DNA of 64,000 nt from contig DLKQ01000013.1 in the NCBI GenBank assembly GCA_002477805.1, forward strand, positions 13,420 to 77,419, given 5' to 3'. Each line of letters starts with the position of its first letter. The first letter of the stretch is position 1. A program made the position numbers and the translations under genes. Below the pieces are notes generated by a model that saw nothing but the letters and a program-made list of their open reading frames with translations, was not told the DNA's origin and did no database searches. Of the stretch, positions 5,756 to 62,387 are shown one piece after another. Origin of the DNA: Christensenella sp. UBA7584 (GTDB lineage: Bacteria > Bacillota > Clostridia > Christensenellales > UBA1242).

Positions 5756-5850
5756 CTTTCGCTCCTTTGACTAAAAATAATTATAGCAAAAACATATACA
5801 ACAATTCAATTGTTTTTACTAAATTTGTTTGAATAATTTTTGGTTAATCA

Positions 5851-5882
5851 AAAATAACACCAGATACCTGATGTTATTTTTA
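5851..5882. terminator. Hairpin terminator downstream of the GT2 gene
   Basis: AAAATAACACCAG-atac-CTGATGTTATTTT with one mismatch. A-run on one side and T-run on the other. Confidence 0.5.
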
Positions 5883-5999
5883 TAAAAAATTCCCTTAAAA
5901 TTCTACAAACAATTTTTGCGAAAATTTCTCATTTGTTTTAAATTTGTAGAATTTTTTATTTCACCCAGTAATCCTCTTATAGAGCAGTCTTTTTAAAAG

Positions 6000-8195: not shown

Positions 8196-8476
8196 AATTT
8201 CCCCCTGGATAAAACACAATCATTATACTAAATAACAGTATTTTTGTCAATAAATAAAAGCACAAACAACAATTTTATACAAATTTATGCAATTTTGCCT
8301 TAATTTTGTATCAATATTATAATATTTGATTAAGTTTTTCACTAATTCAAAATAGTTAAAAATCAAAAAATATCTTAAGAATCTCAAAATTTTGATAAAA
8401 TAAGAATTTTGTCATCAAGCATCTTTTTAGTTAAAACTGTACGTGTACACAATTCTTTTTAAACCATTTTCTAAAC

Positions 8477-10444: not shown

Positions 10445-10825
10445 TAAAAAAACCACCAAAATTATGAAGTGAATCCCGAAGTGGACACTGCAAATAGGTG
10501 GTTTTTTTATCCATAATATTTATAGGGATTTTATTTTTTAGTTGCCTGTTTCTAATTTAAACAATTTATTTTTTAAATTAAAATCACGAGGTAAAATGTG
10601 GAAAAGTGGATAACTTTTGTTAACATTTGCTAAACTGGCTTGAGTACATAAAATCGCATTAGTAAATTAATTAAGGTACTTTTCCCACAGCCAGTTACAA
10701 CATTCAAAAAGCAGTTGCGATTTTTTGCATTTGCAAATTTTTAAGCGAGAAAAAGTAGTTTTTTGCTGTTTTTTGCTGTTTTTTTGAGTTTTTTCACCTA
10801 AATTTTGCCACACAAAAACAAAAAC

Positions 10826-10857
10826 AAAAAACTTGTCTAAATTTTAAACAAGTTTTT
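10826..10857 (-). terminator. Intrinsic terminator of argS
   Basis: On the minus strand: AAAAACTTGT-ttaaaattta-GACAAGTTTTTTGTTTTTG, starting about 20 nt after the argS stop. Confidence 0.7.
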
Positions 10858-10877
10858 ATTCTTTAAAATTACACTTT

Positions 10878-35300: not shown

Positions 35301-38300
35301 AACTACACCATCACTAAAAATAAAGTATTTTGTTGTATCTACTCCATTTTGCGAAGTTGTTTCGGCGACTCTTTGCTGGAATGTTACCCTATCACCATTT
35401 ACAGTGTTTGACTCAACTTTTATGCTATCGAAAACAGCGTAATCTGGCGAAACATTAATTCTAAGCAGTCCCATTTCTCCCACCAAAATTGTATCAGTTG
35501 GAATTGCTCCCGCGTTTACCAGATAATTTCCTGGGAGATTAAGTTCACCTTCAAGCTGTGCATCAGCATAGTGATGAATTGAAACAGTTTGTACTTCTTT
35601 TGGCAAAATTTGAAAATAATATTCCTTTGTAAGTACTCTCGAATTTGAAACAAATTCGTAGTTTGAAACAACTATTTTAAAAGTTTTTGCTTGTTTGAAA
35701 CTTTGCTTAAACGAATTTTGAACACCAAACACAATATTTTCTGTAATATTATCGCCCGACAAACTAATATCTGATACTAGCAAGAAATATTTGTCGTTTG
35801 CATAATCCGAAAGTTCTATTTGTGTTGTTTGAGTGTTTGGGTCAAAAAGTTTAGAGGCAACTAAATTATCTTCCTCAAAAACCTCAATTTTACTTCCAAA
35901 CTGCTGGTCAGTTGGTGAATCACTCACAAGCGTTACACCAAGTTCAACATCTTCCGAAATTTCAAGTTCTACTGGGTTGGTTTCAGTTCCAGTTTTGTCT
36001 ATTTGGATTTGTGACGCACCTTCGTAAATTACAAGTTTGATACTAACACTTTGATTCCAACGATACGAAACAAAGTTTTCAGTCTCGCTTGTAATAACTT
36101 GCCCTTCAACCTTGCCAAGCTGACCTTTGAGATATGGAACCATCGTGAGCTGGAGATTTAGGTTTCGACTTTTTGCAATAAGGCTTGCAGTACTTGTGTT
36201 TTCGACATACATATAAACTTCACTAAGTATCCCAGTAATGCGACCTTGCGAACTTATCACCTGCGAAACTTGTGCATAATTTAACCCACCAACACGGAGT
36301 ACAACATAGTACCTTCCGTCACGCTTGTCAAGTAACACGTCAGCATTTGAGTAAAAAATTGAAAAGGCTTTTTTTGCTTTTAAAAGTAGATTTGTAATAT
36401 CGCTCTCTTCGATGTCTTCTAGTTTTAATATATAAATTTGCGAACCATAAAATGCAAAATAGTTTGTCATATTTAGAATAGCTTTTCTATCAAGTGTAAC
36501 TTGCTTTTTGCTTGTTTCTACATTAAAAGTTGTTTTGTTTACATTACACCAAACATCATCAGAAACGCTAAAGACATAGCTTGTTCCGTTATCTACAACT
36601 TTTGCATTAGATGAAAGATTGAAGGCAAATTGGAACAAGTATTCCATTAATACTAAGTCACCATTAGCAAGTTTTACAATACCCGAAATTACATCAGAAA
36701 AATTCATTTGTTTTGTCTTAAACTCATCTTCACCGAAAGTAGCGTATCCGTCTTCAAGCACAAAAGCCACACCTGTTCCAAGCCCTTCCGCTACCAGCGG
36801 TGTTGTCACATATTCCCCTGAAATTCGCGAAATATTAACATAATTAATTAGCCAATCTTCATTTTGACCTGTTTGAAGAGTAACTGTGTCGCCACTAACA
36901 AAGTTAAATGTCTGACCTGGAAGTTCGTCCTCTTTGTCTTTGAGTGCTCCGCTTTGGTAGAATTTTACATCGCTGTAACCCTGAACAACTTGAATACCAA
37001 CAATATCAAAAAGTCCGCTACTATATTTTGACCTAACCGTGATAAAAGTACTCCCAGTGCCAACAATATTTAGTGTTGCCGAAGCCACTGTATTACCATT
37101 TGAAATATAAATTACTCCAAGGTTACTACTTTCAATTGTAACCATTGACGCAAGTGAAAAGTCTGCATCAAATATACTACCAAGCCTAATTGATTTTGAA
37201 GCAAGCCCGTCTAACATAATGATAACATTTTTTGAATTTGTAGATTCAAAAACATTTGTAGGGAGCACATCTTTTACACTCAGTGAAAGCGTTGTTTGCA
37301 CATCTGGATAAAGCACAACATCATCATATTTAGGAAGAGGATACTCAAACCTTTTTAAAGCGTCAAACGCCCAGTAGTTTGTAAAGTCAAAGTTATTTGA
37401 TGTAAATGTTTGCTCCAATTTTAATTCGTTTTCTGATTTGTATGTTACACCGCTACTGGTTTCTACATTTTTGTTTGAATCATCGTTTTGTTTTAAAAGC
37501 ACATTGTTATATATTACAGTTGCAACAGAAGTTTTAGAAACACAAGCCACACCAGGATGCTCCATAATACTGTAACTAGTATTTATGGTAATACTGCCCT
37601 TTACATTAGAGGCAAAGAGTGCACCTTTGCCGTTTTCTAACACTTCAAGTAATCCTGCGGTAAATGTGTTAGTTATTGTAGTTGAATCGCTCGAAGTACC
37701 TACCTCACCGACAAGTCCTCCAACCGTTTTTGCCTTGATTTTCCCATAGAAATACGAGGAAGAAATTGTCACGCCAAACGGAGCACTTCCAACAAGTCCA
37801 CCCGCTGTTTCTGTACTATAAATTTCACTAACGTTAGCTGATTGTGTAAAACTCAAAACATAAGAGGCAATTATGCTCGCGCCTTCGTAACGCCCAACAA
37901 GGCCACCAACACAGCAAAAAGCCACTGAGCCATCATTAACAACTTCACTTGAAAGCGAAGGTTTTTCGGCATCAAAAATTTCGTAATAACAATTTCTGAT
38001 TATATTTGAACTATAACCTACGATTCCACCAACAGCAAAAGCGTTTGCAATTTGTGTGCTACTAGAGCAGTTGAATACCATACCTGAGGTATGAGCAACA
38101 ATTCCTCCAGCATAGGTACACCCGTTTTCGGCATTAAGCCTAATTTCACCACTTGAAGTAATGTTTGAAAGTTGTCCGCTACTAATTCCAACTACTCCAC
38201 CAATCTTTGAATTTACTGGAAAACTGTTTTTAGTACTCGATGTGATAGTAGTCTTGGCACTGAGTCCACCTTTTACAAGCGTTGCACTATTTTGCGCAAT

Positions 38301-41300
38301 CATACCTCCAAGAGTTATTGACTGCAAAACACTTTTTATATTCGCTTCAAAACTCACTGTAATGTTCGAAATTTCGGAAGACATATTTATTCCAATCGTT
38401 CCTATATAAACTTGGTCTGCCGAACTAATTTCTACATTTTGCGTATTTATTGCAAGTTCACTTAGTTTTACACCCGCTTCAACTTTTCCCGCAAACGAAC
38501 CAACATATTTTCCGCGTATGACTGAAAGTTTTGAAATATCAAAATTCAAGTTTTCGATTTTTGCTGTAAAGATTTTGTCATCATCTGTTTGCATTCCAAG
38601 TACACCGAAAATTCCGGAATATCCACTTGAAGACTCTAATTCAAAACCATAAATTGTACTTGGTGTGCTTGAAAATGAAGTCATTGTTCCAGCAAAAGGT
38701 GTGTCTTCATTACCTATTTTAGAAATCTTTACACCCGAAACATCAATATCATTCATTATGTAATAATTTTTTGTCCACTCACTTGGGTTTTCACTGATTG
38801 ATTTTAGTTTTTGTGCGTCATAAACTCTAATATATGTTTTAAAACCATCTGCAACCGAAATTTTTACAACCTGCTTGTTTGAAATACTATTAAGGCTCGC
38901 AAGCGTTATCTCACTACGCTCTTTCGGCAAAGTGTCTTGTGGAACAATATATAGTAAAGTACTTCCTGCATTAATTGGAGTCACAAAATAATTGCCTGTT
39001 TTTTCGTCTTTTCCGACCCACACACTTTCACTGCGGAAATTACAACTTGGCTTTATTTGATTTGTACTAAAGTCTGAATTACAGTCAATCAAAAAGAATT
39101 CTAGGTTGGAATTTGATGGGTCTACATTACTAGAAGACTGAATATTGATTTTCAAGTTTGTAGTCACACCAATTTGATCCTCATCTTTGTTCGCGAGCTT
39201 GTCTTTTGATAAAATGGACATTTCCTGAGTTGTTTCGAAATAAATTTCATCTACTTCTGGCGAAATTTTTCCAAGACGAACCAGTTCGCTGATAGTCACT
39301 TCAATTGTCCTACTGAAAATAACATTATTTACATCAGTAATCACCACATTGATTCGTACTGTTCTTGATTTTATACCACTAGAAAGCGGTTTTGAAGTTA
39401 CTACAATTGTCTTACCCGAAACTGCATTAGGTTGACCCTCAACAGCTTTTTCACCATTAATCGAAACATAATTTTCACCGCCACTTTCTATTGACCAAAT
39501 TGCTTCTCCTGCCTTGACTGTTGTTTGTTTTTCTTCTGAAGAGGCAATCAGGCTCACCGAAAGCTCAGCTTTTTGATTTTCCTGGTTGTAATATCCTTCA
39601 TTCCCGCTTGCTAAAATTTCAACACGTTCGTTTGAAACAATCATTTCGGAAATTGGCTCAAAGACTCTCAGCTCAAAAGTTTGTCTAATTATGTTGGTTT
39701 CAGTTTTGTTTGTGTTTTTATTTATTTTTAAGTATGGAATATCTACAACGATATAAACAGTACCTTCTTGCTTTGAATAAACATTTATACCCGATGTGTC
39801 AGCAAAAATATTGATTATATTAAGAAAACTTCCTTCCCCTTTAACAATTTCGCCATTAGCGTCAAGTTTGCCAACAAAAATTTCAGGTGTGTGTATATCA
39901 GCTTCGGCAGGAAATTTGTTATATTTAATAGTAAAACTTTTGTTCGAAATTGTTGTAACTGATGCAAGAGTTTGCCTGTTTGGATTAGTTTTGTCTGCTT
40001 TCATTTCGGAAGAAATATTGTCTTCTCCTTCAGCCACTTCAAGCGTAACTGTGTTGATTACCGCCTTGACCGCAACTTTAAATGACTTTTCTATACCATT
40101 AATTGACCTTGCAGTAATTGTTACTGGTTGCCTGGTAGGTTTTTTTGCCGTAACAACAAATTTTCCTGTTTGTGCGTCTTGTGAAGCGGTAACATCGCTC
40201 ACCTCAACATAATTTTCATCACTTGAAGAAATCGTAATGTAGTTTTCGTAATCACTCCTTATCTTTGCACCATTTGGAGAAACTGAAATTTGAATTTCTC
40301 GCGTGTTTGTAACTTCGGTTTCGCCTTCACTTACTTCAAGCTCTATTTTTTCATCAGCTTCAATTCCATCAAAATTAATCTCAGTTATTCCAGCCGAAAA
40401 ACTTAAATAAACCTGCCTTGAAACAACATTTCCACCTATATCACTAAGTGTGGTAATTGTTATCGGAAAACTACCTGTTACTGAGCTTAGAGTTTTTAGT
40501 TTTAAAACATCGCCACTATAAAACACAAGGTCATTTGTCATATATGCTCCATTTGGAAGCTGTGAAAATAATTGATAATGTGCTTCACCGTACATAATAA
40601 CTAATTCTCTTGCGAGCTCTGGCACGGTCTGGCCAAGGCTAATAACATACTTGCCATAACCATAACTAAATGAGTCCAGTGTAATTTCTAAAGATGAACC
40701 ATCTATATCTTGTTTGTAACTATCAAAAACACTGATTTCAGTTATAGTTTCGTCAAAACATTTTGTTTCACCAACTGTAATATTTAGGCTACTAAAATTT
40801 TGCCTTGAAACTTTCACAAACTGGTTTTGCTCATTTTTAACAAACTTATCATAATATCCTTGCTCCCCTGTTGGTGTTTCGATTTGTTTGTACTCGGTAC
40901 CTTTTCCATTGACTAAAATTGCTTTTGGATAGTAAACAACCTTTACGCCCACTTTTGGCGTAAGTACCTTTGGCGAATTTAGAATATTCTCATACGAAAC
41001 AGCAAAAACAACTTCATCTTCTACCACAGTTTCATTTATTCCGACAAGTTCAAACTTGTTTGAGCTATTACCTGGTGAAATCCTAATATTTTGACCGGTG
41101 TAGGTACTTTCAAACTTTAGCCCCGTAATAGGTGTTTCGATTTGTAGTTCAGCAAAGTTTTCTTTTGTTGTGTGACTGAGAATTAAATCAAAACTTTCAA
41201 GATTTGAAACATTTGGTGTTACATTTGTTCGAGTGATAGAAAACATATCGCTCGTTATGTTTTTGAGAACTTTTAGTTTGAAAGTCTTTTGAAAAACTTC

Positions 41301-42047
41301 GTTTGTTGGGTCATCTTCATTGTATGCAAAAATGGTAATTTCACTTGTTGTACTTTGCGAAGTAGCAAGAACAAATTGCTCTCCATTTTTAAAAATAGTG
41401 TCATTTGAAGTTACACTCGTTCTGTAAACAATATTAGGAGTAACTGCTGTTTGAGGTTCAAATTTAAAAAACTTTTCAGTATCGAATTTGAAGTTTTGGT
41501 CTGTAAACACTGCGTAATTTTCTATCACATCTGGATTCGCTCCATTACTCTTTACAACTTGCAAATTGTCTTGATAGTCCATTGATGTGGCTGTTTCTGT
41601 AACTTCTACATAGATTTTTTCAAACACACTAGAATCTTCGCTCGAACTAATAGTTACATAAGTACTTTCATCACTAGCAGTTCCGCCAACTGCCATAAGT
41701 GTTATTGTACTTGTTTCAGTTTGTGGATTGTATGTTGAAACGATAGTTACTTTTTCGGTCGAACTAGAATACACATCAACAGCTCGGCTGACTTGCTCAT
41801 TTCCGCCAACTACTTTGGCCTGAATATACGCATAGCCACTTTCCTTAAGCTTTTGTTGTCCATTTTCATCAACTTCATACTCAGCACTAAGCTTGATTTT
41901 CTTTAATCCGTCTGCTTGTGAAATTTGCGAACTTTCTAGTTCTATCTTAAGTCCATCTCTTGGATTTCCACACGCTGAAAAGCCTAGCAGTGAAAGAACT
42001 GCCACGCATAGAATAAGCGATAATGTTTGAAAAAAATTGAACTTCAT
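23370..42047 (-). CDS. Giant (6,225 aa) surface lipoprotein: Ig-like segments plus six GLUG-type beta-helix repeat modules
   Basis: An uninterrupted 18,678-nt ORF with an AGGAG RBS. Signal peptide with lipobox (LLGFSAC). Hundreds of GG[ILF][VA]G.N.G.I repeats. The module caps contain Y.L..D[IL]D. Confidence 0.9.
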   Translation of the reverse strand: MKFNFFQTLSLILCVAVLSLLGFSACGNPRDGLKIELESSQISQADGLKKIKLSAEYEVDENGQQKLKESGYAYIQAKVVGGNEQVSRAVDVYSSSTEKVTIVSTYNPQTETSTITLMAVGGTASDESTYVTISSSEDSSVFEKIYVEVTETATSMDYQDNLQVVKSNGANPDVIENYAVFTDQNFKFDTEKFFKFEPQTAVTPNIVYRTSVTSNDTIFKNGEQFVLATSQSTTSEITIFAYNEDDPTNEVFQKTFKLKVLKNITSDMFSITRTNVTPNVSNLESFDLILSHTTKENFAELQIETPITGLKFESTYTGQNIRISPGNSSNKFELVGINETVVEDEVVFAVSYENILNSPKVLTPKVGVKVVYYPKAILVNGKGTEYKQIETPTGEQGYYDKFVKNEQNQFVKVSRQNFSSLNITVGETKCFDETITEISVFDSYKQDIDGSSLEITLDSFSYGYGKYVISLGQTVPELARELVIMYGEAHYQLFSQLPNGAYMTNDLVFYSGDVLKLKTLSSVTGSFPITITTLSDIGGNVVSRQVYLSFSAGITEINFDGIEADEKIELEVSEGETEVTNTREIQISVSPNGAKIRSDYENYITISSSDENYVEVSDVTASQDAQTGKFVVTAKKPTRQPVTITARSINGIEKSFKVAVKAVINTVTLEVAEGEDNISSEMKADKTNPNRQTLASVTTISNKSFTIKYNKFPAEADIHTPEIFVGKLDANGEIVKGEGSFLNIINIFADTSGINVYSKQEGTVYIVVDIPYLKINKNTNKTETNIIRQTFELRVFEPISEMIVSNERVEILASGNEGYYNQENQKAELSVSLIASSEEKQTTVKAGEAIWSIESGGENYVSINGEKAVEGQPNAVSGKTIVVTSKPLSSGIKSRTVRINVVITDVNNVIFSRTIEVTISELVRLGKISPEVDEIYFETTQEMSILSKDKLANKDEDQIGVTTNLKINIQSSSNVDPSNSNLEFFLIDCNSDFSTNQIKPSCNFRSESVWVGKDEKTGNYFVTPINAGSTLLYIVPQDTLPKERSEITLASLNSISNKQVVKISVADGFKTYIRVYDAQKLKSISENPSEWTKNYYIMNDIDVSGVKISKIGNEDTPFAGTMTSFSSTPSTIYGFELESSSGYSGIFGVLGMQTDDDKIFTAKIENLNFDISKLSVIRGKYVGSFAGKVEAGVKLSELAINTQNVEISSADQVYIGTIGINMSSEISNITVSFEANIKSVLQSITLGGMIAQNSATLVKGGLSAKTTITSSTKNSFPVNSKIGGVVGISSGQLSNITSSGEIRLNAENGCTYAGGIVAHTSGMVFNCSSSTQIANAFAVGGIVGYSSNIIRNCYYEIFDAEKPSLSSEVVNDGSVAFCCVGGLVGRYEGASIIASYVLSFTQSANVSEIYSTETAGGLVGSAPFGVTISSSYFYGKIKAKTVGGLVGEVGTSSDSTTITNTFTAGLLEVLENGKGALFASNVKGSITINTSYSIMEHPGVACVSKTSVATVIYNNVLLKQNDDSNKNVETSSGVTYKSENELKLEQTFTSNNFDFTNYWAFDALKRFEYPLPKYDDVVLYPDVQTTLSLSVKDVLPTNVFESTNSKNVIIMLDGLASKSIRLGSIFDADFSLASMVTIESSNLGVIYISNGNTVASATLNIVGTGSTFITVRSKYSSGLFDIVGIQVVQGYSDVKFYQSGALKDKEDELPGQTFNFVSGDTVTLQTGQNEDWLINYVNISRISGEYVTTPLVAEGLGTGVAFVLEDGYATFGEDEFKTKQMNFSDVISGIVKLANGDLVLMEYLFQFAFNLSSNAKVVDNGTSYVFSVSDDVWCNVNKTTFNVETSKKQVTLDRKAILNMTNYFAFYGSQIYILKLEDIEESDITNLLLKAKKAFSIFYSNADVLLDKRDGRYYVVLRVGGLNYAQVSQVISSQGRITGILSEVYMYVENTSTASLIAKSRNLNLQLTMVPYLKGQLGKVEGQVITSETENFVSYRWNQSVSIKLVIYEGASQIQIDKTGTETNPVELEISEDVELGVTLVSDSPTDQQFGSKIEVFEEDNLVASKLFDPNTQTTQIELSDYANDKYFLLVSDISLSGDNITENIVFGVQNSFKQSFKQAKTFKIVVSNYEFVSNSRVLTKEYYFQILPKEVQTVSIHHYADAQLEGELNLPGNYLVNAGAIPTDTILVGEMGLLRINVSPDYAVFDSIKVESNTVNGDRVTFQQRVAETTSQNGVDTTKYFIFSDGVVYIENGIMPACVTNSDGSFDGTIWLQTLIAKQSTTVQSFLITVTISKSGSEDKVFTFDLAVDSSANITLSYDTAKNLESNLPQAFVAVGTGGSSDKLNALGEKLTVTNGANKNILKITQQGEFESEVSVSIIDDQTEGLAQIEHTAGIYYVVVPSTVQIGAQFTVQVQGVKYVNGYRRTITRQMIFTTTDFVLKNGSLVVSDVKDAVMDKPYYKNAMFKITIGIDNEKINFNPTHAKAKQNLESFLKALNSGEVEIWSMLEKVSESASEETSIKQIKKAGSVGADYYYAVTAKLSDSVSPFDKNNDTGSTSVYSVIQNTFYIRLVIQDGDNNGWYFCPIKQNFNGLKVVFNDIDFSFNLSSVLNMGFTTLNGNDFFVPRQVFTLKFTQQTSRDSPIPIENLTDLLNMTEGRDYRLMADIDATSVLWEPLDVNIASLDGNGKTIKLSRFNTSTVGSETSVANYGLFAEIGEDTLIKNLTVQYITTELDLSASTYINFGGLAGINNGTVTNCQVIARDEFGNRGTIQISSTGSTSDVFNIAGLVAVNNASISNSRVKDLNLIARGYVAGFVSQNNHKIASSFSDNIQITNQALSNLSGASAGFVAFNSSGSQITTSYAGGAFVKFYTSNGRQIYEVDSSIGIQGRTVQIISTVNTGGFVYENYGKISDSFAGIALSLDSSSLSGGFVYANKSSGTIKRCYSVSYVPNIGASEQGNKAHTPFIGPTADYSSLYNENPRQDAIENCFFYDAGFGSEGIKLSEALGIEERTMEQFINRDNEQISYWDTYSTSRKYVDGFKGEEFASVWTFVNDDNAYFNMNNFLPKLKEANTLYFFMGPRLVSADLIAVENWDTVEYTKNESGEDMYTYTRGVYTKDDKIYAINEYLILDEDANVAVVSPNLIDSAETLYTLMKSDFECHGKITEWYRLVSDIDLSELTALGLDFSTISKQTFSGNFEGNGFEIKNLDISSGSADRFGLFSKIDDTNGIVNNFVSVQNLDLSVNNVTAALVTKVGALAGEVENVSINNINVYAKSTNSIVIGKNIVGGVIGKVTGTSRISNVDSSISVTAVFGNSQTVKLIYNADLLRLYKIANSGNPDSQLCYAGAVFGVVDLKSYVAEKLNITREDFNDAHISNIKVSGESEVIGTTAGGVVGLLGATSFANNIKKVVEVGSIIKAVRYAGGIVGENHGVLNYARLVYDEEVQDEMDKSTGVGFTSANANINMFQYNSKAIGGLVGINIGYIYDMQSGIIANSFNKVKVANSTAKVAGGLVGISVGGEIDTCYVTGSVLSTKSGTLGGAIGLVCGMGDVSSDISDPFPIEIVPNKSVYNGMKNDEIHTTISHLVAMNNWSVSDYDKLTLIKENGKFGGLIGEIVSDKISEMHSTISNEEYELLVAEGNGIGLSGEENFYVKEIYNYQPDKTKKASNGLEIKAVGAGLGTSDVATGLTRFEAYTYSYQNTSTQVKEQDEPDLKTRLLKQADRVFENWLVYNYGTVFTLSDDSLFYKNTNYDFAGMPIYKPLPNPDVIEIWTVEDYQNIKNSLKSNYVLMADLDFTGVEYSPIGSASKPFTGSFTGTSTQDGVTTTHVLYNITMPTDSTYNASGIGLFAYIKNATIKDVVVSGVNFSWVPSALNATSYAGIMVGYAEDSVISNVQVLEDFSRVEVESLGSEFTIDGKSYNISGNSLLSGGTKVADIKTVTISSESGSVTYQTFNIGRKSFEIQNNTLLQTWKKENILKSSAKYIGGLVGSYTLLAKEKGSILNSNVEAKLTVVNAGKQTLSIENNQFVLNGMVYTIDAFGNVYTDDGTLVASGTKFVLEDYNCTLNASKTKLECEPILNPEVYVGGSIGFVEASVGRNMLIEGDYFVGNIDIDRISPMNVGSFVGYASNVNIETAFANAKVNVIGAKHKAVVGGFAGEITNSVTTNVMMFGDVDLTIESNEKDLSIGGFAGRINGQIDNCITFANMRLSNEKNNWTALSSGTENQQIGGFAGSLGVNSNNLIMRNDVSFASIFNNSLLTNIDGFAYQTPTNFNSRDNDNVKNVYFDKYLSLTASDKAKCGQTSTSFLYYDSSSSTSFELLDANDQYSIFKFGSDKYPRIQFEPTAERTQFYSKYVELFENALYGTKIKPVQISNVGQFLAMAMPSSYTEDIAWANGWTKENYKWYIQSANLQDVPLTQNVILQGFYNGTGRSITTTSYDSIYGSSQAVSDMGLFGEIIGQSAISGVNATSTIYIGLSASGELKQTRIGIITANLSEQGVIFGSSTKGLITIITTEQIGNIVGGLVGVNSGQIIASSSKVDISFSGSDQNYFAVGGLVGYNNENNQNYTLKDCYFSGTINNYATEKAYAGGLIGKVVKNVAIPLETSISGQANLLNAYSSATIKGSGGAILGDWSGSDSLCKNIYYIGKINKPIQKKDTLIGDEFSVYEQRYGANEYGQTYNITTGVVLNEKTNGSMTPGIWLSRDYLNYGLPYLSTETNMIETGNGTRDSSGKDSPFLINNESQLVWALRTSSTNLSLAGVYKYRLIRDMDYSLISTILEASSNIQDLSLSMLDFKGTIDGDGHYILGSTSAFVGTNSGQITQLGFKDSTATSGLVANINAGTISKVYITKQGEIEMFANSGGGQITDCVTENYVIDTSGQGSSDPAKRTVNYDNIVAMSDSFDFVHTWALRPNNPGETNHLTTGNIALRCFVPTLATLDVNGTTGEISTSGLDVTLEINDIKQYSAILQYFARSGGNGFTYHINLSGSINMLGYKVPDLTSGNQEIKLDINGNNNTIYNFIIDDVSGLENTGLISVFNGTIKNLKFNQVSLVSEYVGGIVAGENLGTIKNITVSNSSISSINGSVGTVIGRNQGICEEISIENVSIISDGGTVGGVAGRNSGYVTTHIDNENNEVVELKGGIISTNKIKNLVIKKGKDINAIGGVVGSVDNRFSKITITDEVEIIVADSCENLGGIIGKGVATGEVIIRSSGALNLTLQSESANVGGAVGVITGSTQGEESPIGDALHLAGTINITANEAVKNLGGIIGSASGEGQIKVHTAESTIGAISLQINGESENIGGIIGVSASSSVQITSTSIVKSFKANININSTAQSKNIGGIVGYNLKTLDSIMYNGGEDNRIIINTTQTDSNIGGFAGYNLGTIKTAVSGVTINSVSTNVGGIVGLNDTAQSESTGLVETGVISAEASDIIIATLDSVGQPVASASVSEYVGGIVGKNNGKVQKFVINSSTLFGKRFVGGVAGINLQEIGNLDVGTASNTSQVVGVLTLSAEQDVGVITSINETDAVIQNLLVKALDGQTIKVTYTKTDSDSTPAGLLLAENKSTIKDVTFESRTQGSELTKLDTSALGSHTNVGLIGVNSGEISNINMKDVKITASENDSNIGFVGTNKAIISDITLSGVLTSNALKNIGMVAGYNEKNASIVRVKLGYETSKRWNLTGTSIGTVVGFNEGKISGYQVTGKLEINAENSVNVGGIVGLNNGQILELDGENLITGITITGGTNVGGAIGQNKENITLTQSTPIVNAITISGNENIGGFVGINSAKLSGTVTKSVITSSSLGGRLSVGGFVGKNTGTIDGAFVSGNTITQETNLSAEMNFGGLVGLNTSEITNSRVYATTINATSESGEAGSVLGGLVGQNQGTISGCNVNISSADKIQGKDNIGGIVGLNSTGGITQNVVLEALKTDGGEATSNVIVSTGVNVGGLVGNNMSSLTGTNSVGAGNTIIAQGILGGIVGLNEGTFSGTSAFSGAVNGKVGNSSVSSYAIGGAVGINRGNITTKFSISHKSQIAGGILIGGFVGLSENKGEMKGEMSSATVTFVRDNTDQVLTLSYFGAKTYQYGTDGHTNDYTDFKSPKQTWYMWYHNTNYNNRIDEIPTISSGTTYFVGVGILVGCNDNNVGLPKVTPTIYFEQVSGQISDPREYLNYYIREGTTYKLCDKNLSDMTESEKSSLYRGIVDFKQQGSGYAYVLEQQPAGMSKQ

Positions 42048-54300: not shown

Positions 54301-54460
54301 CACATTCCCCCTTTTTTCTTCTTGGAACTCATTTTTCATTATGATTATAGGACTAAATTGAGACTTATGTCAATCAAAATTACTCAAATTTTTGACAAAG
54401 TTTTAAAATATTTTATTGATAAAAAATTTCCATTATGATATAATAAAAAAGGTGAAAATT

Positions 54461-55780
54461 ATGAGTGACACAATCGTTGCAATTTCTACCCCACTCGGAA
54501 CTGGTGGGGTCGGTGTTATTAGGCTAAGTGGAGATAAATCAGAACGCATTTTAAAAAAGATTTTTACGCCACAAAAAGCCCAAGAATTTACACCGCGAAA
54601 AATGGTTTTTGGAAAAGTTTCGTTTAATAATATTACAGACAACTGCCTAGCAGTTGTTTTCAACGCGCCAAATAGTTTTACGGGTGAAGATGTGGTCGAA
54701 ATTCAAATGCACGGTGGCATAAAACTATTGCAAGAAACAGTTTCAAGACTAATTTCACTCGGTGCAAGAATGGCTCTACCTGGTGAATTTTCAAAACGTG
54801 CTGTTCTAAACGGAAAAATGGACATTACCGAAGCTGAAGGCCTCATTGATATGATAAACGCAAGGTCAGTCTGCCAGCTTCAGGTTGCAAGTTCACAAAT
54901 GGGTGGCGAGCTTCACAAAAAAATTGTAGAAATGCAAACTACTCTTACAAATCTATTGGCAACAATTGAAGTCGCGCTCGACTTTCCAGAACACGAGGAA
55001 ACTTTTGCCGAAGCCGAGACAAAAGAAAAAATCCCAAAGCTTATTTCGCTTTTAAAAACTTTATGTACAACTCAAAGTGTGGGAACAAAAATTAAAAACG
55101 GAGTGAGTGTCGCTCTTGTGGGAAAAGCCAATGTTGGAAAAAGTTCGCTTTTAAACGCACTCGTTGGGTTCGACCGTGCAATTGTAACTAACATCGCAGG
55201 TACAACACGCGATACTATTTGTGAAAGTTATGAATATAATGGCGTAATCTTTAACATTGTGGACACCGCTGGCTTGCGACAAACAGATGACCCAGTTGAA
55301 AAGGAGGGAATCAAGCGAAGTGTTCAAACTATTAACGAATGTGATATTACACTAAAAGTATGGGATAGTGATGAAATTATGCAGGATAGTGATGAAATTT
55401 TGTCACATACCCCCAAAAATTTTATAAATGTATTAAACAAATGCGACCTGGTTTTAACCACAAAATTCCCGTTTGACATTATGGTTAGTGCAAAAAAAAA
55501 CACTAACATTGACAAGTTAAAACAGTTGATTTATGACAAAACTATTGACAAAAACTTGCTTAGTAACGAAGTGGTGATTACCAACTTAAGGCACGGTGAA
55601 CTTCTTCAAAAAACATTAAAAACACTTGAACAAGCCGAAAGCGATTTGGACATAGTTTCCCTTGATTGCACTGCTGTTCTATTAAAACAAGCTTGGGACT
55701 TTTTAGGTCAAATCACGGGCGAAACTTCAAATGAAAAAATTATAAACACTATATTTAGTAAATTTTGTTTAGGAAAATAA
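54461..55780 (+). CDS. mnmE: tRNA modification GTPase MnmE
   Basis: MSDTIVAISTP...GGVGVIRLSG, G-domain motif GKANVGKSSLLNAL, DTAG and a C-terminal CLGK. Start set at the ATG at 54461. Confidence 0.95.
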   Translation: MSDTIVAISTPLGTGGVGVIRLSGDKSERILKKIFTPQKAQEFTPRKMVFGKVSFNNITDNCLAVVFNAPNSFTGEDVVEIQMHGGIKLLQETVSRLISLGARMALPGEFSKRAVLNGKMDITEAEGLIDMINARSVCQLQVASSQMGGELHKKIVEMQTTLTNLLATIEVALDFPEHEETFAEAETKEKIPKLISLLKTLCTTQSVGTKIKNGVSVALVGKANVGKSSLLNALVGFDRAIVTNIAGTTRDTICESYEYNGVIFNIVDTAGLRQTDDPVEKEGIKRSVQTINECDITLKVWDSDEIMQDSDEILSHTPKNFINVLNKCDLVLTTKFPFDIMVSAKKNTNIDKLKQLIYDKTIDKNLLSNEVVITNLRHGELLQKTLKTLEQAESDLDIVSLDCTAVLLKQAWDFLGQITGETSNEKIINTIFSKFCLGK

Positions 55781-55784
55781 GAAA

Positions 55785-57644
55785 ATGGATTATGAATATG
55801 ATTGTATCGTTGTGGGAAGTGGTCACGCTGGAATCGAAGCCAGTTTAGCTCTTGCCAGAACAGGAATGAAAACACTTTTAACAACTCTCAATTTGGACAG
55901 TATTGGCTTTTTACCTTGCAACCCTTCAATCGGTGGAACAGCAAAAGGTCATATTGTGTTCGAAATAGATGCCCTTGGTGGCGAAATGGGTAGAATTGCC
56001 GACCAATGTACTATCACCCGCCGAATGTTAAATGAAACAAAAGGACCAGCTGTTCACTCGCTGAGAGCTCAAGTAGATAAAAACAAATATCACGAAATTG
56101 CCAAAAAGACACTTGAAAACACAGAAAATCTAAAAATTTTACAAGCCGAAATTGTAGAAATTCTTACTGAAGATAAAAAAGTCATCGGTGTCCTTACAAG
56201 TCTCGGCGAAAAAATTACCGCGAAATCAGTAATATTATGTACAGGGGTTTATTTAAGTAGTAGAATTATTATAGGAAGTTACACTCAAGACAGCGGGCCA
56301 AACGGGTTTTCTAACGCTAAAAAGCTAAGTGCTTGCCTCGAAAATTTGGGCTTTAAAATTTTACGCTTTAAGACAGGAACACCAATGCGTGTGGATAAAA
56401 AAACCATCAATTTTTCAACTTTTGAAGAGCATATCGGCGATGAAAATACACCAAATTTTAGCAAGCGCACTAGCGAAAAAATTAAAAATTTAGACAAATG
56501 TTATTTGGGTTACACCAATGAGCAAACACACAAAATTATTAGAGAGAATTTATCTCGTAGTCCTTTATATGCGGGTATTATTAAAGGAATTGGCCCGCGT
56601 TATTGCCCTTCAATTGAGGACAAAGTTGTTAGATTTTCAGACAAACCAAGACATCAATTCTTCCTAGAGCCCGAGGGACTAAACACAGACGAGATTTATG
56701 TTCAAGGTATCAGCACGAGCCTTCCTTTTGATGTTCAAAAAAGCATTATTCACAGTATTAGCGGACTCGAAAACGCTTGGCTTATGCGACCAGCTTATGC
56801 AATTGAATACGACTGCATAGACAGCACTCAGCTTTGGTCTACGCTTGAATCAAAACTTGTGGAAGGACTTTATTTTGCAGGTCAAATCAACGGAACAAGC
56901 GGGTATGAAGAAGCTGCTTGCCAGGGGCTTATGGCGGGATTAAATGCTAGTTTAAAACTCAGAAACAAAGAGCAAATTGTACTCAAGCGTAATGAGGCTT
57001 ATATCGGAGTTTTGATTGATGACCTCGTTACAAAAGGTACAAACGAACCTTACCGAATGATGACATCAAGAGCAGAATACAGACTATTTATTAGACAAGA
57101 TAATGCTGACGCGCGTCTAACAAAAATAGGTTACCGAGCAGGGCTTGTTTCTCAAAAAGAGTATGACGCATACATAAAAAAAGAACAAGCGCTCACTGAA
57201 GGGCAAAAGATACTCGAAAAAGTTTTACCGCCAACGCAAGAATTACAAAACTTACTCGCGCAAAATAATGAGACAGCACTAAAAACTGGCGTAAAAGTTA
57301 AAACATTACTAAAAAGAGCAAATATTGATATCTTTAAACTCAATGACGCACTCAATCTTTTTGAAAACTTTTCAACCGAAGTTTTAAATGAACTTAATAT
57401 TATTGCAAAATATGAGGGCTACATAAATATTCAAGAAGAGCAAATTGAACACACTCTCAAAAATGAGGAAATTATTATTCCAAAAGACATTGACTACTCA
57501 AAACTTTCTGGTTTGAGACTTGAAGCAAAGCAAAAACTAGATAAAATTAGACCCGAAAATTTAGGTCAAGCAAGTAGAATTAGTGGTGTGTCTCCTGCTG
57601 ATATTACAGTTTTGACAATTTACTTAAAGAAAATGGAGAAATAG
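55785..57644 (+). CDS. mnmG: tRNA uridine 5-carboxymethylaminomethyl modification enzyme MnmG
   Basis: YDCIVVGSGHAGIEA (FAD-binding motif) and GPRYCPSIEDK. 619 aa. Confidence 0.95.
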   Translation: MDYEYDCIVVGSGHAGIEASLALARTGMKTLLTTLNLDSIGFLPCNPSIGGTAKGHIVFEIDALGGEMGRIADQCTITRRMLNETKGPAVHSLRAQVDKNKYHEIAKKTLENTENLKILQAEIVEILTEDKKVIGVLTSLGEKITAKSVILCTGVYLSSRIIIGSYTQDSGPNGFSNAKKLSACLENLGFKILRFKTGTPMRVDKKTINFSTFEEHIGDENTPNFSKRTSEKIKNLDKCYLGYTNEQTHKIIRENLSRSPLYAGIIKGIGPRYCPSIEDKVVRFSDKPRHQFFLEPEGLNTDEIYVQGISTSLPFDVQKSIIHSISGLENAWLMRPAYAIEYDCIDSTQLWSTLESKLVEGLYFAGQINGTSGYEEAACQGLMAGLNASLKLRNKEQIVLKRNEAYIGVLIDDLVTKGTNEPYRMMTSRAEYRLFIRQDNADARLTKIGYRAGLVSQKEYDAYIKKEQALTEGQKILEKVLPPTQELQNLLAQNNETALKTGVKVKTLLKRANIDIFKLNDALNLFENFSTEVLNELNIIAKYEGYINIQEEQIEHTLKNEEIIIPKDIDYSKLSGLRLEAKQKLDKIRPENLGQASRISGVSPADITVLTIYLKKMEK

Positions 57645-58219: not shown

Positions 58220-58924
58220 ATGAATGAACTAATTATCGAAACATTTCACAAAAACGGCTTAGAATTAACTTTAGAGCAAGCAAATTTATTCAATATTTAT
58301 CTAAATTTACTTTTAAAGTACAATCAAGAGTTTAATTTAACCGCAATTACTGACAAAAAAGAAATAATTTTAAAGCATTTTGTTGACAGTTGTCTATTAA
58401 ATGATACTTTTAAGCAAGGGTGTACAGTGTGTGATGTGGGTTCTGGAGCCGGATTTCCCGCGATTCCGCTAAAAATACTACGACCTGATTTAAAAATAAC
58501 AATGATAGACAGTTTAAACAAACGAGTTGAATTTTTAAAAACCGTTACAAATCAATTAAATCTAAGCGATATTACGGCGTTTCACTCTCGTGCACAGGAA
58601 TTTTGTGCCAGTAGTAGGGAAAGTTTTGATTACACAACCGCTCGTGCAGTTGCGCCTCTTAATATTTTAAGTGAGCTCTGCTTGCCTATTACTAAATTAG
58701 GTGGTGCGTTTGTAGCGTTTAAATCTCAAGACGCAGAAAATGACATAAAAAACGCAGAAAACGCAATCAATATTCTGGGAGGGAAAATAGCAGAAATTAA
58801 ACAAATCACCTTAAAATCAGATACAGAATTTTTTGTACGAAAACAAATAATTATCGAAAAAATTTCACCAACACCAATACAATATCCAAGACTAAAAGAT
58901 AAAATCACAAAATCACCTCTTTAA
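58220..58924 (+). CDS. rsmG: 16S rRNA (guanine527-N7)-methyltransferase RsmG
   Basis: NLTAITDKKEIILKHFVDS and the SAM motif VCDVGSGAGFPAIPLKI. AAGAGG RBS. Confidence 0.9.
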   Translation: MNELIIETFHKNGLELTLEQANLFNIYLNLLLKYNQEFNLTAITDKKEIILKHFVDSCLLNDTFKQGCTVCDVGSGAGFPAIPLKILRPDLKITMIDSLNKRVEFLKTVTNQLNLSDITAFHSRAQEFCASSRESFDYTTARAVAPLNILSELCLPITKLGGAFVAFKSQDAENDIKNAENAINILGGKIAEIKQITLKSDTEFFVRKQIIIEKISPTPIQYPRLKDKITKSPL

Positions 58925-59504
58925 CCTCACCAAATAAATTTAAAAATAATTAATAAAACAGGATTAAATTGAGAAATAAAAAAATATAACTTTTTTGAAA
59001 AAAGTTATGAAAATAAATTTCTTTTTTATATAGGACAAATATTACTATTAATTTACTAATTAAAAAATTTAATCGCAAATTTGCAATTCATTTAAAAAGC
59101 TTTAACTATAAAAATATTATATATTAAAACCTTAAATCAATTTTATTAAACCGTCATCTTTAATTGGCGGTTTTAACTTTAACGTAAAATTATATTTTTT
59201 ACATAATTATTTTATTTTTAATTAACAACAACATCATATTCACCACATAAATTTAGAGATAGATAAAACTAAATCTTAATTAAAATATATAATACTTAAT
59301 ATTGTGTTTTACATCTCATTTACTTTTGATGTATAAGCCATAAATAGTTATTCAATTATCTTGTTTATATTTTATTGTATTTTTATTTATTAGTTATAAT
59401 TAATTTAAAATTACATTAAGTGATGGATACTAGTAATATTACATTCTTTCCTAATTTTTAAAACATTTCTTACCATATATTCAATTATTCTTGCAAATAT
59501 ATTA

Positions 59505-59520
59505 TGTTTCGTACGAAACT
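59505..59520. promoter_or_regulatory. parS-like palindrome, copy 1 (TGTTTCGTACGAAACT)
   Basis: A perfect 14-bp dyad GTTTCGTACGAAAC at 59506-59519. The outer arms equal the parS arms; the central ACGT is replaced by GTAC. Confidence 0.5.
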
Positions 59521-60033
59521 TATTCATAAAACAAATTCAAAAGTCTTATCCAATCATAAAATAATTTCAAAATAATATTGGATTTAGAATAAATAATATT
59601 TTATTTAAACAAAAAGTGAAAAGTAAAATCAAAATAAAAAAAACAACCCCACTAAATACTAAATTGAAATAATTTTTAGATAGTAATTAATTCTATATTG
59701 TTATAATGTGGAATTAATTTATTTTCACAAAATAATATGATTAACAAATTGTAATAATATGATTAAATATAATATAAATAGTTAAATATTGTGATACAAT
59801 ATAACATAATTATTTATATAATAATAAATGATAAGATGTTTTATTTGATAATTAAATAATCATTTCCTTATAAAAAGGTTATAAAAACAATAATAAATCA
59901 AGTATAAACAATGTAAAAACTTTTTAGGAAATTAAAACACTATTAAATAATGACACTAAAAATATTATTATTTAAATTCTAGTGTTTAAAAAAGTGAAAT
60001 TAAATCATTAGATAAAAATCAAAACAAACATTT

Positions 60034-60049
60034 AGTTTCGTACGAAACA
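60034..60049. promoter_or_regulatory. parS-like palindrome, copy 2 (AGTTTCGTACGAAACA)
   Basis: The identical 14-bp dyad at 60035-60048, 529 bp from copy 1 and ~450 bp upstream of parA. Confidence 0.5.
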
Positions 60050-60103
60050 AAAAAATAAAATTAACACATAAAATACAGAATAAAAAAAGAAAATGTTAAT
60101 TTT

Positions 60104-60150
60104 AACCATAAAAAACAACAATTTTTAGTGTTTTTTATGGTTATTTTTTA
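60104..60150 (+). terminator. Strong terminator-like hairpin inside the AT-rich gap
   Basis: AACCATAAAAAACA-acaatttttag-TGTTTTTTATGGTT has a 14-bp perfect stem and is followed by ATTTTTTA. Confidence 0.5.
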
Positions 60151-60496
60151 CATTTAATAAAAACCCCAATCATTAAACAAAAATTAAAAGACAAAACAAC
60201 TTCTAAAAAATAGCAAGCTTTCACAAAAAACAACAAACAAAAAATTATTTAATAAGAAGGACAAAACTTTTTATAGACTTTTAATAAATTAAATACGAAC
60301 AAAAATAAGCAAAGACAATTTTACTGAAAGTAAAATGTTTTCACTTGTAAAACTTTTAAGGTTTAATATGTTTTAAAAAATAAAAACAGAGTAAAAAAAT
60401 TAAAACAAAATTACCGCTTTATATAAAAATATATGCAAATTTGATTGCTTTTTTATTTGTTTTATTTTATAATAAGTATGAGAAGGAGAATGGATA

Positions 60497-61315
60497 ATGG
60501 GGAAAATAATATCATTTATAAATCAGAAAGGAGGAGTTGGTAAGACAACAACTTGTGTCAATCTTGCAACATTTTTAGCTGCTTATGGGAAAAAGGTGTT
60601 GATAATAGACTTAGACCCTCAGGGTAATGCAACCACAGGAGTTGGAATAGATAAAAATCTAGAGATGAACACATTCTATGATATATTACTTGATGAGTGT
60701 ACAATTAAAGAAGCTATAATACAGACCAAATTTAAGAATCTATCAATTCTTCCTAGTAATGTTGATTTAGCAGGTTCAGAAGTAAGTTTAGTTCAAAGGG
60801 AAAATCGTGAAAAGGTACTAAAAAATATTATAAGTACAATTAAAAACGACTACGATTATATTGCTATTGATTGCCCACCTTCACTTGGATTGTTGACAGT
60901 AAACGCACTTACCGCGACCGATACTATCATAATTCCAATTCAATGTGAATTTTATGCACTTGAAGGATTAAGTCAGTTAATGAATACAGTTAAACTTGTA
61001 AAAGAATATCTCAATAGCAGTATTGAAATAGAAGGTGTAGTGCTCACAATGAAAGATAATCGAAGCAACCTTGTAAATCAAGTCGCAAAAGAAATTAAAG
61101 CTTTTTTTGGAAGGAAAGTGTATGACACAGTTATTCCAAGAAATGTAAGACTAGCTGAAGCACCAAGTCACGGATTGCCAATATTTGTTTACGATAATAG
61201 GAGTACAGGTTCTATTGCATATCAAGACTTAGCGATTGAGTTTTTAAAAAGAAATAAAGACACAGGGAAATTAATTAATCCAAAAGAACTGGTAAAAGGA
61301 GATAAAAATGTCTAA
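60497..61315 (+). CDS. parA: ParA/Soj chromosome-partitioning ATPase
   Basis: Deviant Walker A NQKGGVGKTTT, plus IIDLDPQGNAT and IAIDCPPSLG. AAGGAG RBS. Confidence 0.95.
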   Translation: MGKIISFINQKGGVGKTTTCVNLATFLAAYGKKVLIIDLDPQGNATTGVGIDKNLEMNTFYDILLDECTIKEAIIQTKFKNLSILPSNVDLAGSEVSLVQRENREKVLKNIISTIKNDYDYIAIDCPPSLGLLTVNALTATDTIIIPIQCEFYALEGLSQLMNTVKLVKEYLNSSIEIEGVVLTMKDNRSNLVNQVAKEIKAFFGRKVYDTVIPRNVRLAEAPSHGLPIFVYDNRSTGSIAYQDLAIEFLKRNKDTGKLINPKELVKGDKNV

Positions 61316-62387
61316 GTACGGTTTAGGAAGAGGTTTAAGTTCATTGTTTGCAACATTTGAAAAACAAGAACCAAAAAAGGAAGAGTCAAGGGTTAAGGAA
61401 GTAAAAAAAGTTGAATCACAACCAAACACAGAAAGCGATGCACTCAAAAAAGCAAAAAATCTTTTAAATAATAGTACCATAAACACACCACTTAAAGACA
61501 TAAACGAAACTGTTGAGCGCACGAGCTATTTAGACGAAAAACAAGCGCTCGCAAAGAAACTCAGTAAAATTGAGCACGAAATACCACGCGCAAGGGAAGT
61601 AGAAAATGAAAGCGTTACCGAACTTGAATTAAGTAAAATTGAGCCAAATGTTAACCAACCACGAAAAGCTTTTGATAAAGAAAGCTTACAAGAGCTAAGT
61701 TCATCAATCAAACAGCACGGCGTAATACAACCAATAATCATTGTTCAGAAGGGTGAAAAATATTCTATAGTAGCGGGTGAACGCCGATATAGAGCAGCAA
61801 AAATGGCTGGACTAAAAACAATACCAGTAATTATAAAAAACTACTCTACTAAAGAAATAAAAGAAATCGCACTAATTGAAAACTTACAAAGAGAGGACTT
61901 AAACCCAGTAGAAACAGCATACGCGCTAAGGCAATTGATTGAGGAATACCAGTTCACACAAGAAGAAGTAGCTGATAAAATTGGCAAAACAAGAACTGTA
62001 GTTACAAACTTTTTAAGAATACTAAAGCTTGAGCCTGAAGTACTTTCTATGGTTGAAAAAGGAAAATTAACATTTGCGCACGCAAAAGCTCTTGTAAGCA
62101 TTAACGATAGAGAAACACAAATTAAACTAGCCAAAAAAGCAAGTGACGATAAGATTAGTTCTAGAGAACTAGAAACAATTGTTCAGGAAATAATTAACCC
62201 AGAAAAAGTTAAGAAAAACAAACAAACTGTTGGCTTGGAAATAAAAAATCTGGTTAGTCGTATGCAATATGTGTTCGGAACAAAAGTTAACGTAATCGGT
62301 TCAGACAAAAGAGGTAGAATTTATATTGACTACTTTAATCAAGATGACCTTGATCGAATCGCTGGACTGATTGAAAAATTAAATTAA
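61308..62387 (+). CDS. parB: ParB/Spo0J with an ~85-aa insertion after the N-terminal ParA-interaction peptide
   Basis: GLGRGLSSLF at the N-terminus, PNVNQPRKAFD, arginine patch GERRYRAA and an HTH region. 359 aa against the ~280 typical. 8-nt overlap with parA. Confidence 0.9.
   Translation: MSKYGLGRGLSSLFATFEKQEPKKEESRVKEVKKVESQPNTESDALKKAKNLLNNSTINTPLKDINETVERTSYLDEKQALAKKLSKIEHEIPRAREVENESVTELELSKIEPNVNQPRKAFDKESLQELSSSIKQHGVIQPIIIVQKGEKYSIVAGERRYRAAKMAGLKTIPVIIKNYSTKEIKEIALIENLQREDLNPVETAYALRQLIEEYQFTQEEVADKIGKTRTVVTNFLRILKLEPEVLSMVEKGKLTFAHAKALVSINDRETQIKLAKKASDDKISSRELETIVQEIINPEKVKKNKQTVGLEIKNLVSRMQYVFGTKVNVIGSDKRGRIYIDYFNQDDLDRIAGLIEKLN

Follow-up and report, generated by a model that had tools for sequence, protein, structure and literature searches.

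The chromosomal parS site bound by ParB is among the most conserved DNA-protein recognition words in bacteria, and, to our knowledge, the ParB family offers only one well-studied case in which specificity has changed naturally, the switch from ParB to its paralogue Noc. Replicon-specific ParB/parS pairs, such as V. cholerae ParB2/parS2 and those of Burkholderia multipartite genomes, have divergent parS words matched to their own ParBs and thereby form orthogonal centromeres; they are paralogous systems, found alongside a canonical pair that the main chromosome carries. Here we analyze a 64,000-nucleotide stretch of contig DLKQ01000013.1 from Christensenella sp. UBA7584 (hereafter the window), in which two identical palindromes of non-canonical sequence precede the genes for ParA and ParB. 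These palindromes very probably serve as the chromosomal parS of the ParA-ParB system encoded directly downstream.

The chemistry of ParB and Noc site recognition has been described in detail. According to Jalal et al. 2020 (PMC7383237), positions 1 and 6 are the only ones at which parS and the Noc site are different. Position 1 is read by R173, and residue 201 lies against base pair 6; G201 of ParB lacks a side chain, and its sole contact at T-6, through the backbone, is not base-specific, while the arginine of Noc reads G-6 (PMC7383237). Position 6 and residue 201 form the pair that switches ParB to Noc specificity, and G201 was reported to be absolutely conserved in extant ParB orthologs (PMC7383237). 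S172, N178, and R204 are conserved contacts; a lysine has a permissive effect at either 179 or 184, and Caulobacter ParB becomes promiscuous in its RTKG variant (PMC7383237).

Two palindromes upstream of parA and the ParB encoded beside them

The features that carry the argument are the following.

59506-59519, no strand: parS-like site 1, GTTTCGTACGAAAC, an exact match (with flanking bases, T-site-T, 59505-59520); a member of the GTTTCG-YR-CGAAAC family kept upstream of parA in relatives
60035-60048, no strand: parS-like site 2, identical to site 1, an exact match (with flanking bases, A-site-A, 60034-60049)
58925-60496 (1572 bp), no strand: gene-free, A+T-rich spacer holding both sites, between the end of rsmG and parA; ~16% guanine plus cytosine (GC)
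60497-61315, + strand: parA (soj), a 272-aa Walker-type ATPase with motif KGGVGKTT; an open reading frame (ORF) with NCBIfam matches and, on the identical gene of the parent contig (locus L001), Pfam ParA/CbiA/AAA_31
61308-62387, + strand: parB (spo0J), an ORF of 359 aa with an N-terminal LGRGLSSLF, an 80-aa K/E-rich linker, a GERRYRA box for cytidine triphosphate (CTP) binding, a helix-turn-helix (HTH), and a C-terminal dimerisation domain
61983-62093, + strand: DNA-recognition segment of ParB, residues 226-262 (GKTRTVVTNFLRILKL...TFAHAKAL), from ungapped alignment to known structures

An earlier note, made from the letters of the window, had pointed to two identical dyads at these positions and judged a chance repeat very unlikely. 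Exact matching bears this out. GTTTCGTACGAAAC is a perfect 14-bp palindrome with two copies in the window and none further even at up to two mismatches, the copies are unique within the 74 kb formed by the window and its parent contig, and no exact match arose in any of 100 dinucleotide-preserving shuffles. The looser pattern GTTTC-N4-GAAAC occurs at the same two places only in the 64 kb, against 0.12 expected, and a count of two or more was reached in none of the 100 shuffles. Relative to the parA ATG at 60497, site 1 lies 991 bp and site 2 462 bp upstream, in line with the first estimates of ~1 kb and ~0.45 kb. The description of the dyads as the only G/C islands in an A/T desert has to be narrowed: other short G/C stretches exist (e.g. 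59150-59175), but no other is repeated or palindromic.

The palindrome departs from the canonical consensus TGTTNCACGTGAAACA at half-site positions 6 and 7, while 10 of its 14 core bases agree and the GTTTC and GAAAC arms are both intact. It is also not a Noc-type site, in which position 1 would be A and position 6 would be C; both are G here. As the earlier note had stated, the 64 kb hold no canonical parS: the best window matches have three mismatches and are present at chance frequency (three found vs 3.55 expected). A canonical cluster elsewhere near the origin was looked for in the parent contig, ~10 kb further, to dnaA, and there too no match was better than three mismatches. No site lies inside the window parB.

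The proteins themselves are of the expected kind. parA overlaps the start of parB, so an adjacent Walker-type ParA is encoded in the same operon. The ParB keeps the GERRYRA and ENLQREDL motifs, matches Pfam PF02195 and PF17762, and thus has both the CTP box and the HTH of the family; it passes TIGR00180 (185 bits, cutoff 58) and fails the Noc model TIGR04285 (227 bits, cutoff 315). The ~85-aa insertion that had marked this ParB as atypical is real and corresponds to a K/E-rich N-terminal linker of ~80 residues that follows LGRGLSSLF, varies in length among relatives, and shifts the beginning of the conserved core to ~residue 101, vs residue 22 in T. thermophilus Spo0J.

An ungapped alignment sets the HTH region against those of Noc (7NG0), Myxococcus ParB (7BNR), and Thermus Spo0J (1VZ0). 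In Caulobacter numbering, the window ParB has T172, R173, T174, N178, F179, K184, A201, and K204. Among the conserved contacts S172/R173/N178/G201/R204, R173 and N178 are kept and the other three are substituted (S172T, G201A, R204K). At the positions that give Noc its specificity (Q173/K179/K184/R201), the window ParB has R, F, K, and A. When the residues that discriminate parS from Noc sites are set beside the site, R173 is retained together with G1, and residue 201 is alanine, neither the glycine of ParB nor the arginine of Noc.

Relatives, half-site position 6, and the recognition helix

The close relatives of this ParB that a database search returned form a small family, 58-78% identical and drawn entirely from metagenomes. 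Seven further locus sets share the helix GKTRTVVTNFLRILKL followed by (F/L)AHAK, with 66-78% ParB identity to the window protein:

L086/87: ParB P0002, 78% identity
L083-85: ParB P0003, 75% identity
L088/89: ParB P0007, 71% identity
L111 and L132: from a JGI scan, ~70% identity (L111)
L101: ParB P0008, 69% identity
L092: ParB P0011, 66% identity

Each of the seven sets has 3-6 copies of GTTTCG-YR-CGAAAC in the gap between mnmG or rsmG and parA, and none has a canonical parS. Across the TNF-helix lineages, every one of roughly 35 sites carries G at position 6 of both half-sites (G6/G6), and none carries A6. The central dinucleotide is an asymmetric TG/CA in most same-helix lineages and TA in the window only; the L092 sites (TGTTTCGCGCGAAACA five times, GTTTCGCACGAAAC once) agree with canonical parS at 12 of 14 bases. 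The reading of the window sites as parS arms around a GTAC core is therefore right as to the retained GTTTC/GAAAC arms, but the core is specific to this genome, and the conserved novelty is the A-to-G change at half-site position 6. On the sequences compared here, a lineage of uncultured low-GC Clostridia appears to have changed its parS from TGTTTCAC-GTGAAACA to GTTTCG-YR-CGAAAC. The conserved change is half-site base 6, from A to G (A:T to G:C), and the central CG has drifted further, to TG/CA in relatives and to the TA found here.

Gap DNA is unalignable between same-helix lineages, the sites and a 30-nt parA promoter-like segment being all that is conserved. In L083 (7391-9046), six asymmetric sites, three in TG orientation and then three in CA, lie at intervals of 287-368 bp in DNA with 10-15% GC; L083, L085, and the more distant L003 share the gap architecture of the window, with site flanks of 8-18% GC. 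Two lineages have an extra G6 site within the mnmG coding sequence (L088 7460-7473, L092 7621-7634), where VSHET or VSRET stands in place of the usual GLVS(K/Q)K and the central variant is that of the genome concerned. Since codons of mnmG have been recoded around the site, the DNA word itself is likely to be under selection; the window mnmG has no site at the homologous place (~57141-57154, GLVSQKEY). ParB is the only DNA-binding protein consistently encoded beside the arrays. None of four G6 14-mers was found in the full-text literature searched.

More distant ParBs supplied the contrast. A genome-collection scan with a ParB profile gave at least 80 loci, at up to 57% identity and mostly from Clostridia. 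At least 41 of the matches listed have two or more sites with A6 on both halves beside parAB, in the same position relative to parAB; the site words are GTTTCACGTGAAAC, its CA/TG-centre variant, or GTTCCACGTGGAAC (GTTTCAC../GTTCCAC.. types). No G6/G6 site occurs at these 41 canonical-cluster loci, among the matches listed. The earlier note had left open whether the dyads were the cognate centromere or the operator of another HTH protein; G6 arrays in the seven same-helix sets and canonical clusters in the equivalent place of the 41 others provide support for the former.

Two loci of the contrast set have hybrid sites. In L003 (53% identity; helix GKSRPMVTNTLRILKL, SLAHAK), GTTTCGCGAGAAAC occurs six times within 4523-8790 with half-sites G6/T6, and in L054 (Clostridium thermobutyricum; ..EAHGR), GTTTCACGAGAAAC occurs three times within 10759-12129 with half-sites A6/T6. 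In both, every copy within the genome has the same half-site asymmetry. Given that C/T heterogeneity at central position 7 is also present in seven canonical lineages, the centre appears generally tolerant, and the diagnostic change is at position 6. Genome GC was considered as a cause of the central drift from CG to TG to TA and showed no clear relation, position-7 C/T heterogeneity extending from 27% to 52% GC.

Because the base-6 change goes together with substitutions at the ParB residues in contact with DNA there, ParB and its site probably co-evolved, with G201A against base pair 6 and with S172T, R204K, F179, and K184. T172 was never found with canonical sites, being confined to the window clade and a sister clade with an NY helix (..TNYLRIL..), and the combination of residues is unique to the G6 clade. 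This covariation with DNA-contact residues suggests that ParB specificity has shifted. One possible steric reading is that the methyl group of A201 crowds the methyl of thymine -6 in an A:T pair but fits the cytosine of a G:C pair. If the sites are parS, we lean, by a little, towards a co-evolved ParB that prefers G6 over canonical parS. A fuller account is more tentative: the main-chromosome ParB/parS pair could have switched at base 6 together with the contact substitutions G201A, S172T, and R204K and could be orthogonal to canonical parS, the A6/T6 and G6/T6 hybrids could be preserved intermediates, and the G6 word could be a recurrent alternative allele of a "universal" centromere.

By homology with characterised ParABS systems, ParB dimers would recognise each 14-16 bp dyad through the HTH, and ParB would then bind CTP, close into a clamp, and slide onto the gene-free, A+T-rich DNA around the sites. 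The gap at 58925-60496 may accordingly act as the ParB loading and sliding zone. The partition complex would form 6-9 kb from the DnaA-box clusters described below, and ParA and probably SMC loading would act there.

Alternatives to a shifted centromere

Scanning metagenomes for ATGTTTCGYRCGAAACAT yielded 119 stretches. Unrelated contigs of 23-56% GC contain tight arrays of 2-8 copies of aaaTGTTTCGCGCGAAACAttt, mostly 35-80 bp apart:

L106, 4668-5243
L174, 3613-4240
L122, 5656-5993
L126, 265-634
L146, 397-794
L170, 1940-2059
L154, 10513-10607
L180, 2191-2347
L149, 1901-1964

At all seven loci whose flanking genes were read (L106, L122, L126, L170, L154, L180, and L149), the array adjoins a UPF0102/YraN gene; NusA and H+-PPase lie to one side of it, or ComM and a DksA-like zinc-finger gene to the other. 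Skew and DnaA boxes gave no clear origin signal around these arrays, which may belong to a second lineage with a G6-type centromere. If they too are centromeres, the G6 parS allele is recurrent; if not, another protein reads the same word.

The yraN arrays, with no ParA or ParB within the fetched DNA, are the main residual uncertainty for the parS assignment, and further observations weigh against that assignment or against a shift in ParB specificity. The window has two sites, vs 3-6 in relatives, and has no promoter-proximal site, while relatives carry one 80-160 bp upstream of parA. With ~74 kb of the genome read, its other regions could hold canonical sites. In the NY-helix sister clade (L090, L091, L093-L099), a search for arms, palindromes, repeated k-mers, and GC islands revealed nothing within ~10 kb of parAB that could be recognised as parS-like, only two-mismatch relics at chance level, e.g. 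GTAGCGCACGAAAC (L090 6271); the mnmG-parA gaps of this clade are long and A+T-rich (2-3 kb in L090, L093, and L099). As to specificity, substitutions of the window ParB occur singly with canonical sites, namely F179 (L065), A201 (L004), and K204 and K184 (many loci), so that specificity cannot yet be assigned to particular residues. The covariation also stands for a single evolutionary event, not many independent ones. Finally, three of the 119 stretches are canonical-type clusters that contain one G6 site each, either GTTTCGCGCGAAAC or GTTTCGTGCGAAAC, beside a ParB of the ..SAGHAR type. In L113 (868-1228), two canonical sites (GTTTCACGTGAAAC) and one GTTTCGCGCGAAAC lie upstream of rsmG-parA-parB, with an ordinary ..SAGHAR ParB; L135 (2921-3051) has one canonical and one G6 site next to parA, and L134 (619-5830) has two canonical sites and one G6 site. 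An ordinary ParB may thus tolerate G6.

These observations give some substance to an account in which the sites are parS and the specificity of ParB is unshifted: a permissive ParB with a K184 background would tolerate different bases at position 6, and the sites would have drifted neutrally to G6 by mutation and gene conversion. In its favour, G201 lacks a side chain and does not contact T-6 in a base-specific way, and the RTKG Caulobacter variant is promiscuous (PMC7383237). The co-occurrence of G6 and canonical sites in L113, L135, and L134, the presence of every substitution but S172T elsewhere with canonical sites, and the hybrid half-sites of L003 and L054, which show a labile position 6 among these lineages of the tree, point the same way. 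Such drift is nonetheless hard to reconcile with the uniformity of the roughly 35 TNF-helix sites, which would be unexpected if A and G were equivalent, or with substitutions at the otherwise strongly conserved contacts S172, G201, and R204. Copies are moreover alike within each genome, the mnmG copy included, which points to selection on the exact word. Overall, we consider unshifted specificity rather unlikely.

Far less probable is that the palindromes are operators of another dimeric DNA-binding protein, whether a regulator of parAB or of an unannotated gap transcript, and resemble parS by chance. The arrays beside yraN, which have no parAB in view, show that ParB is not the only conceivable binder. 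The resemblance, however, covers 10 of 14 bases (12 of 14 in L092) with both arms in full, the arrays replace canonical parS at exactly its position in relatives, and no other DNA-binding gene is syntenic with them. The window sites are also 440-970 bp from the conserved promoter-like element, and 3-6 copies over 0.2-1.8 kb are typical of centromeres, not operators. A functionless chance or relic repeat, left by a duplicated segment or a mobile-element remnant, might be entertained for a genome with two copies only, and the 42-nt alignment around the copies is 71% identical, which is unremarkable at 16% GC. The absence of exact matches in 100 shuffles and the conservation of the word across lineages whose surrounding DNA has diverged beyond alignment effectively refute it, and its probability is negligible. 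The parS of the adjacent ParA-ParB system thus accounts best for the palindromes.

The gap and the origin-proximal neighbourhood

Other features around the sites are listed below.

54416-55780, + strand: mnmE, upstream of rsmG
55785-57644, + strand: mnmG, upstream of rsmG
58220-58924, + strand: rsmG (gidB), left boundary of the gap
60445-60473, + strand: parA promoter-like element, TTGCTT, 17 nt, TATAAT, read from the sequence; putative promoter

The gap is very poor in G and C: positions 59001-60000 have 16% GC, and the 200-bp flanks of each site have 14-17%. It has no ORF of at least 40 aa except one chance ORF of 42 aa. Structured RNA and transfer RNA (tRNA) were ruled out as its content, since the window has no match that attains the gathering score of an Rfam family and no tRNA was found. 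A decayed noc or rsmG is likewise not supported, the best E value being 3 when five Noc-like proteins and RsmG were searched by tblastn against the gaps of the window and six relatives. An oriC inside the gap was ruled out by the lack of any DnaA box in 58925-60496; boxes cluster near dnaN and dnaA. Promoter-like matches in the gap numbered 15, vs 19.4 expected from shuffles, and there were no terminators. Apart from the palindromes, the only gap stretch of the window conserved with L086 and L092 is 60439-60475, which contains the TTGCTT-17-TATAAT element ~25 nt upstream of the ribosome-binding site of parA; the palindromes are a further 440-970 bp upstream of it.

The window has the gene order mnmE, mnmG, rsmG, gap, parA, and parB on the + strand, followed by jag and yidC, which are both on the - strand, and the parent metagenomic contig (ENA ERZ808269 NODE_28, locus L001) goes on with rnpA, rpmH, an inverted dnaN, and dnaA. 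DnaA-box matches are enriched in L001 (14 vs 6.1 expected; none of 100 shuffles had as many). Since DnaA-box clusters (L001 14824-14853 and 17562-17659) lie 6.1-9.4 kb from the palindromes and a strong negative-to-positive turn in GC skew covers the DnaA-box zone, the sites are origin-proximal. Palindromic sites are thus clustered near oriC, two here and 3-6 in relatives, all upstream of parA.

Some further observations concern the same region. Past the right end of the window, L001 14421-19311 has an unusual origin layout, with dnaN inverted relative to dnaA and DnaA-box clusters on both sides of dnaN; the intergenic gaps flanking dnaN measure 1.4 kb (14-25% GC) and 2.4 kb (22-25% GC). No rsmG gene is called at the mnmG-parA position in L088, L090, L092, L093, L099, and L101, while it is present there in the window, L083, and L086; tblastn found no rsmG match in the five mnmG-parA gaps tested (L101 was not searched). 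Elsewhere in the window, 23370-42047 on the - strand is a single ORF of 6225 aa (18.7 kb).

Comparison with described ParB and Noc systems

A clade whose primary centromere has moved at position 6, with neighbours that have hybrid half-sites, would offer a natural series on how a protein co-evolves with many genomic sites without loss of an important function, and the change falls on the same base-residue pair (position 6 and residue 201) as the ParB/Noc split. Origin prediction and annotation based on parS would miss these genomes. An orthogonal ParB/parS pair, if verified, would be useful for multicolour labelling of DNA loci; if ParB merely tolerates G6, the result is a modest extension of the known parS consensus.

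Compared with the replicon-specific pairs, the case here differs in that a main-chromosome pair at the canonical origin-proximal locus appears to have changed. The engineered Caulobacter intermediates between ParB and Noc (PtoN3, RTKG) share R173, K184, and a small residue 201 with the window ParB and are promiscuous at position 6. Those are laboratory variants, however, whereas the window ParB is natural and has further changes (T172, F179, A201, and K204).

Noc, a ParB paralogue of Bacillota, and its Noc-binding site (ATTTCCCGGGAAAT) provide the precedent for a specificity change at position 6 through residue 201, with K184 permissive (PMC7383237). In Noc, position 1 also changes, from G to A, by way of R173Q, whereas the window ParB keeps R173 and the site keeps G1. 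Position 6 is C in the Noc-binding site and G here, and residue 201 is arginine in Noc and alanine here. The window ParB also scores below the Noc cutoff (227 vs 315 bits) and is the sole ParB-family gene at the locus, paired with a ParA.

The closest likeness is to canonical ParABS, as in B. subtilis Soj-Spo0J with parS TGTTNCACGTGAAACA and the Caulobacter and Thermus ParBs. parA-parB occupies the origin-proximal neighbourhood mnmE-mnmG-rsmG-parAB-jag-yidC-rnpA-rpmH; the window ParB has the GERRxRA CTP box, the HTH, and the C-terminal dimerisation domain and passes TIGR00180; and the window sites are 14-16 bp dyads with GTTTC/GAAAC arms, clustered next to parAB with DnaA boxes within 10 kb. 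Unlike in canonical systems, G replaces A at half-site position 6 and TA replaces CG at the centre; no site of canonical sequence was seen, and no site lies inside parB, the sites being set instead in a dedicated gene-free gap of 16% GC. The ParB has an 80-aa N-terminal linker, and T172, F179, K184, A201, and K204 in a segment where S172, G201, and R204 are usual. In every tested respect but the canonical site sequence and the three conserved contact residues, the system is a ParABS.

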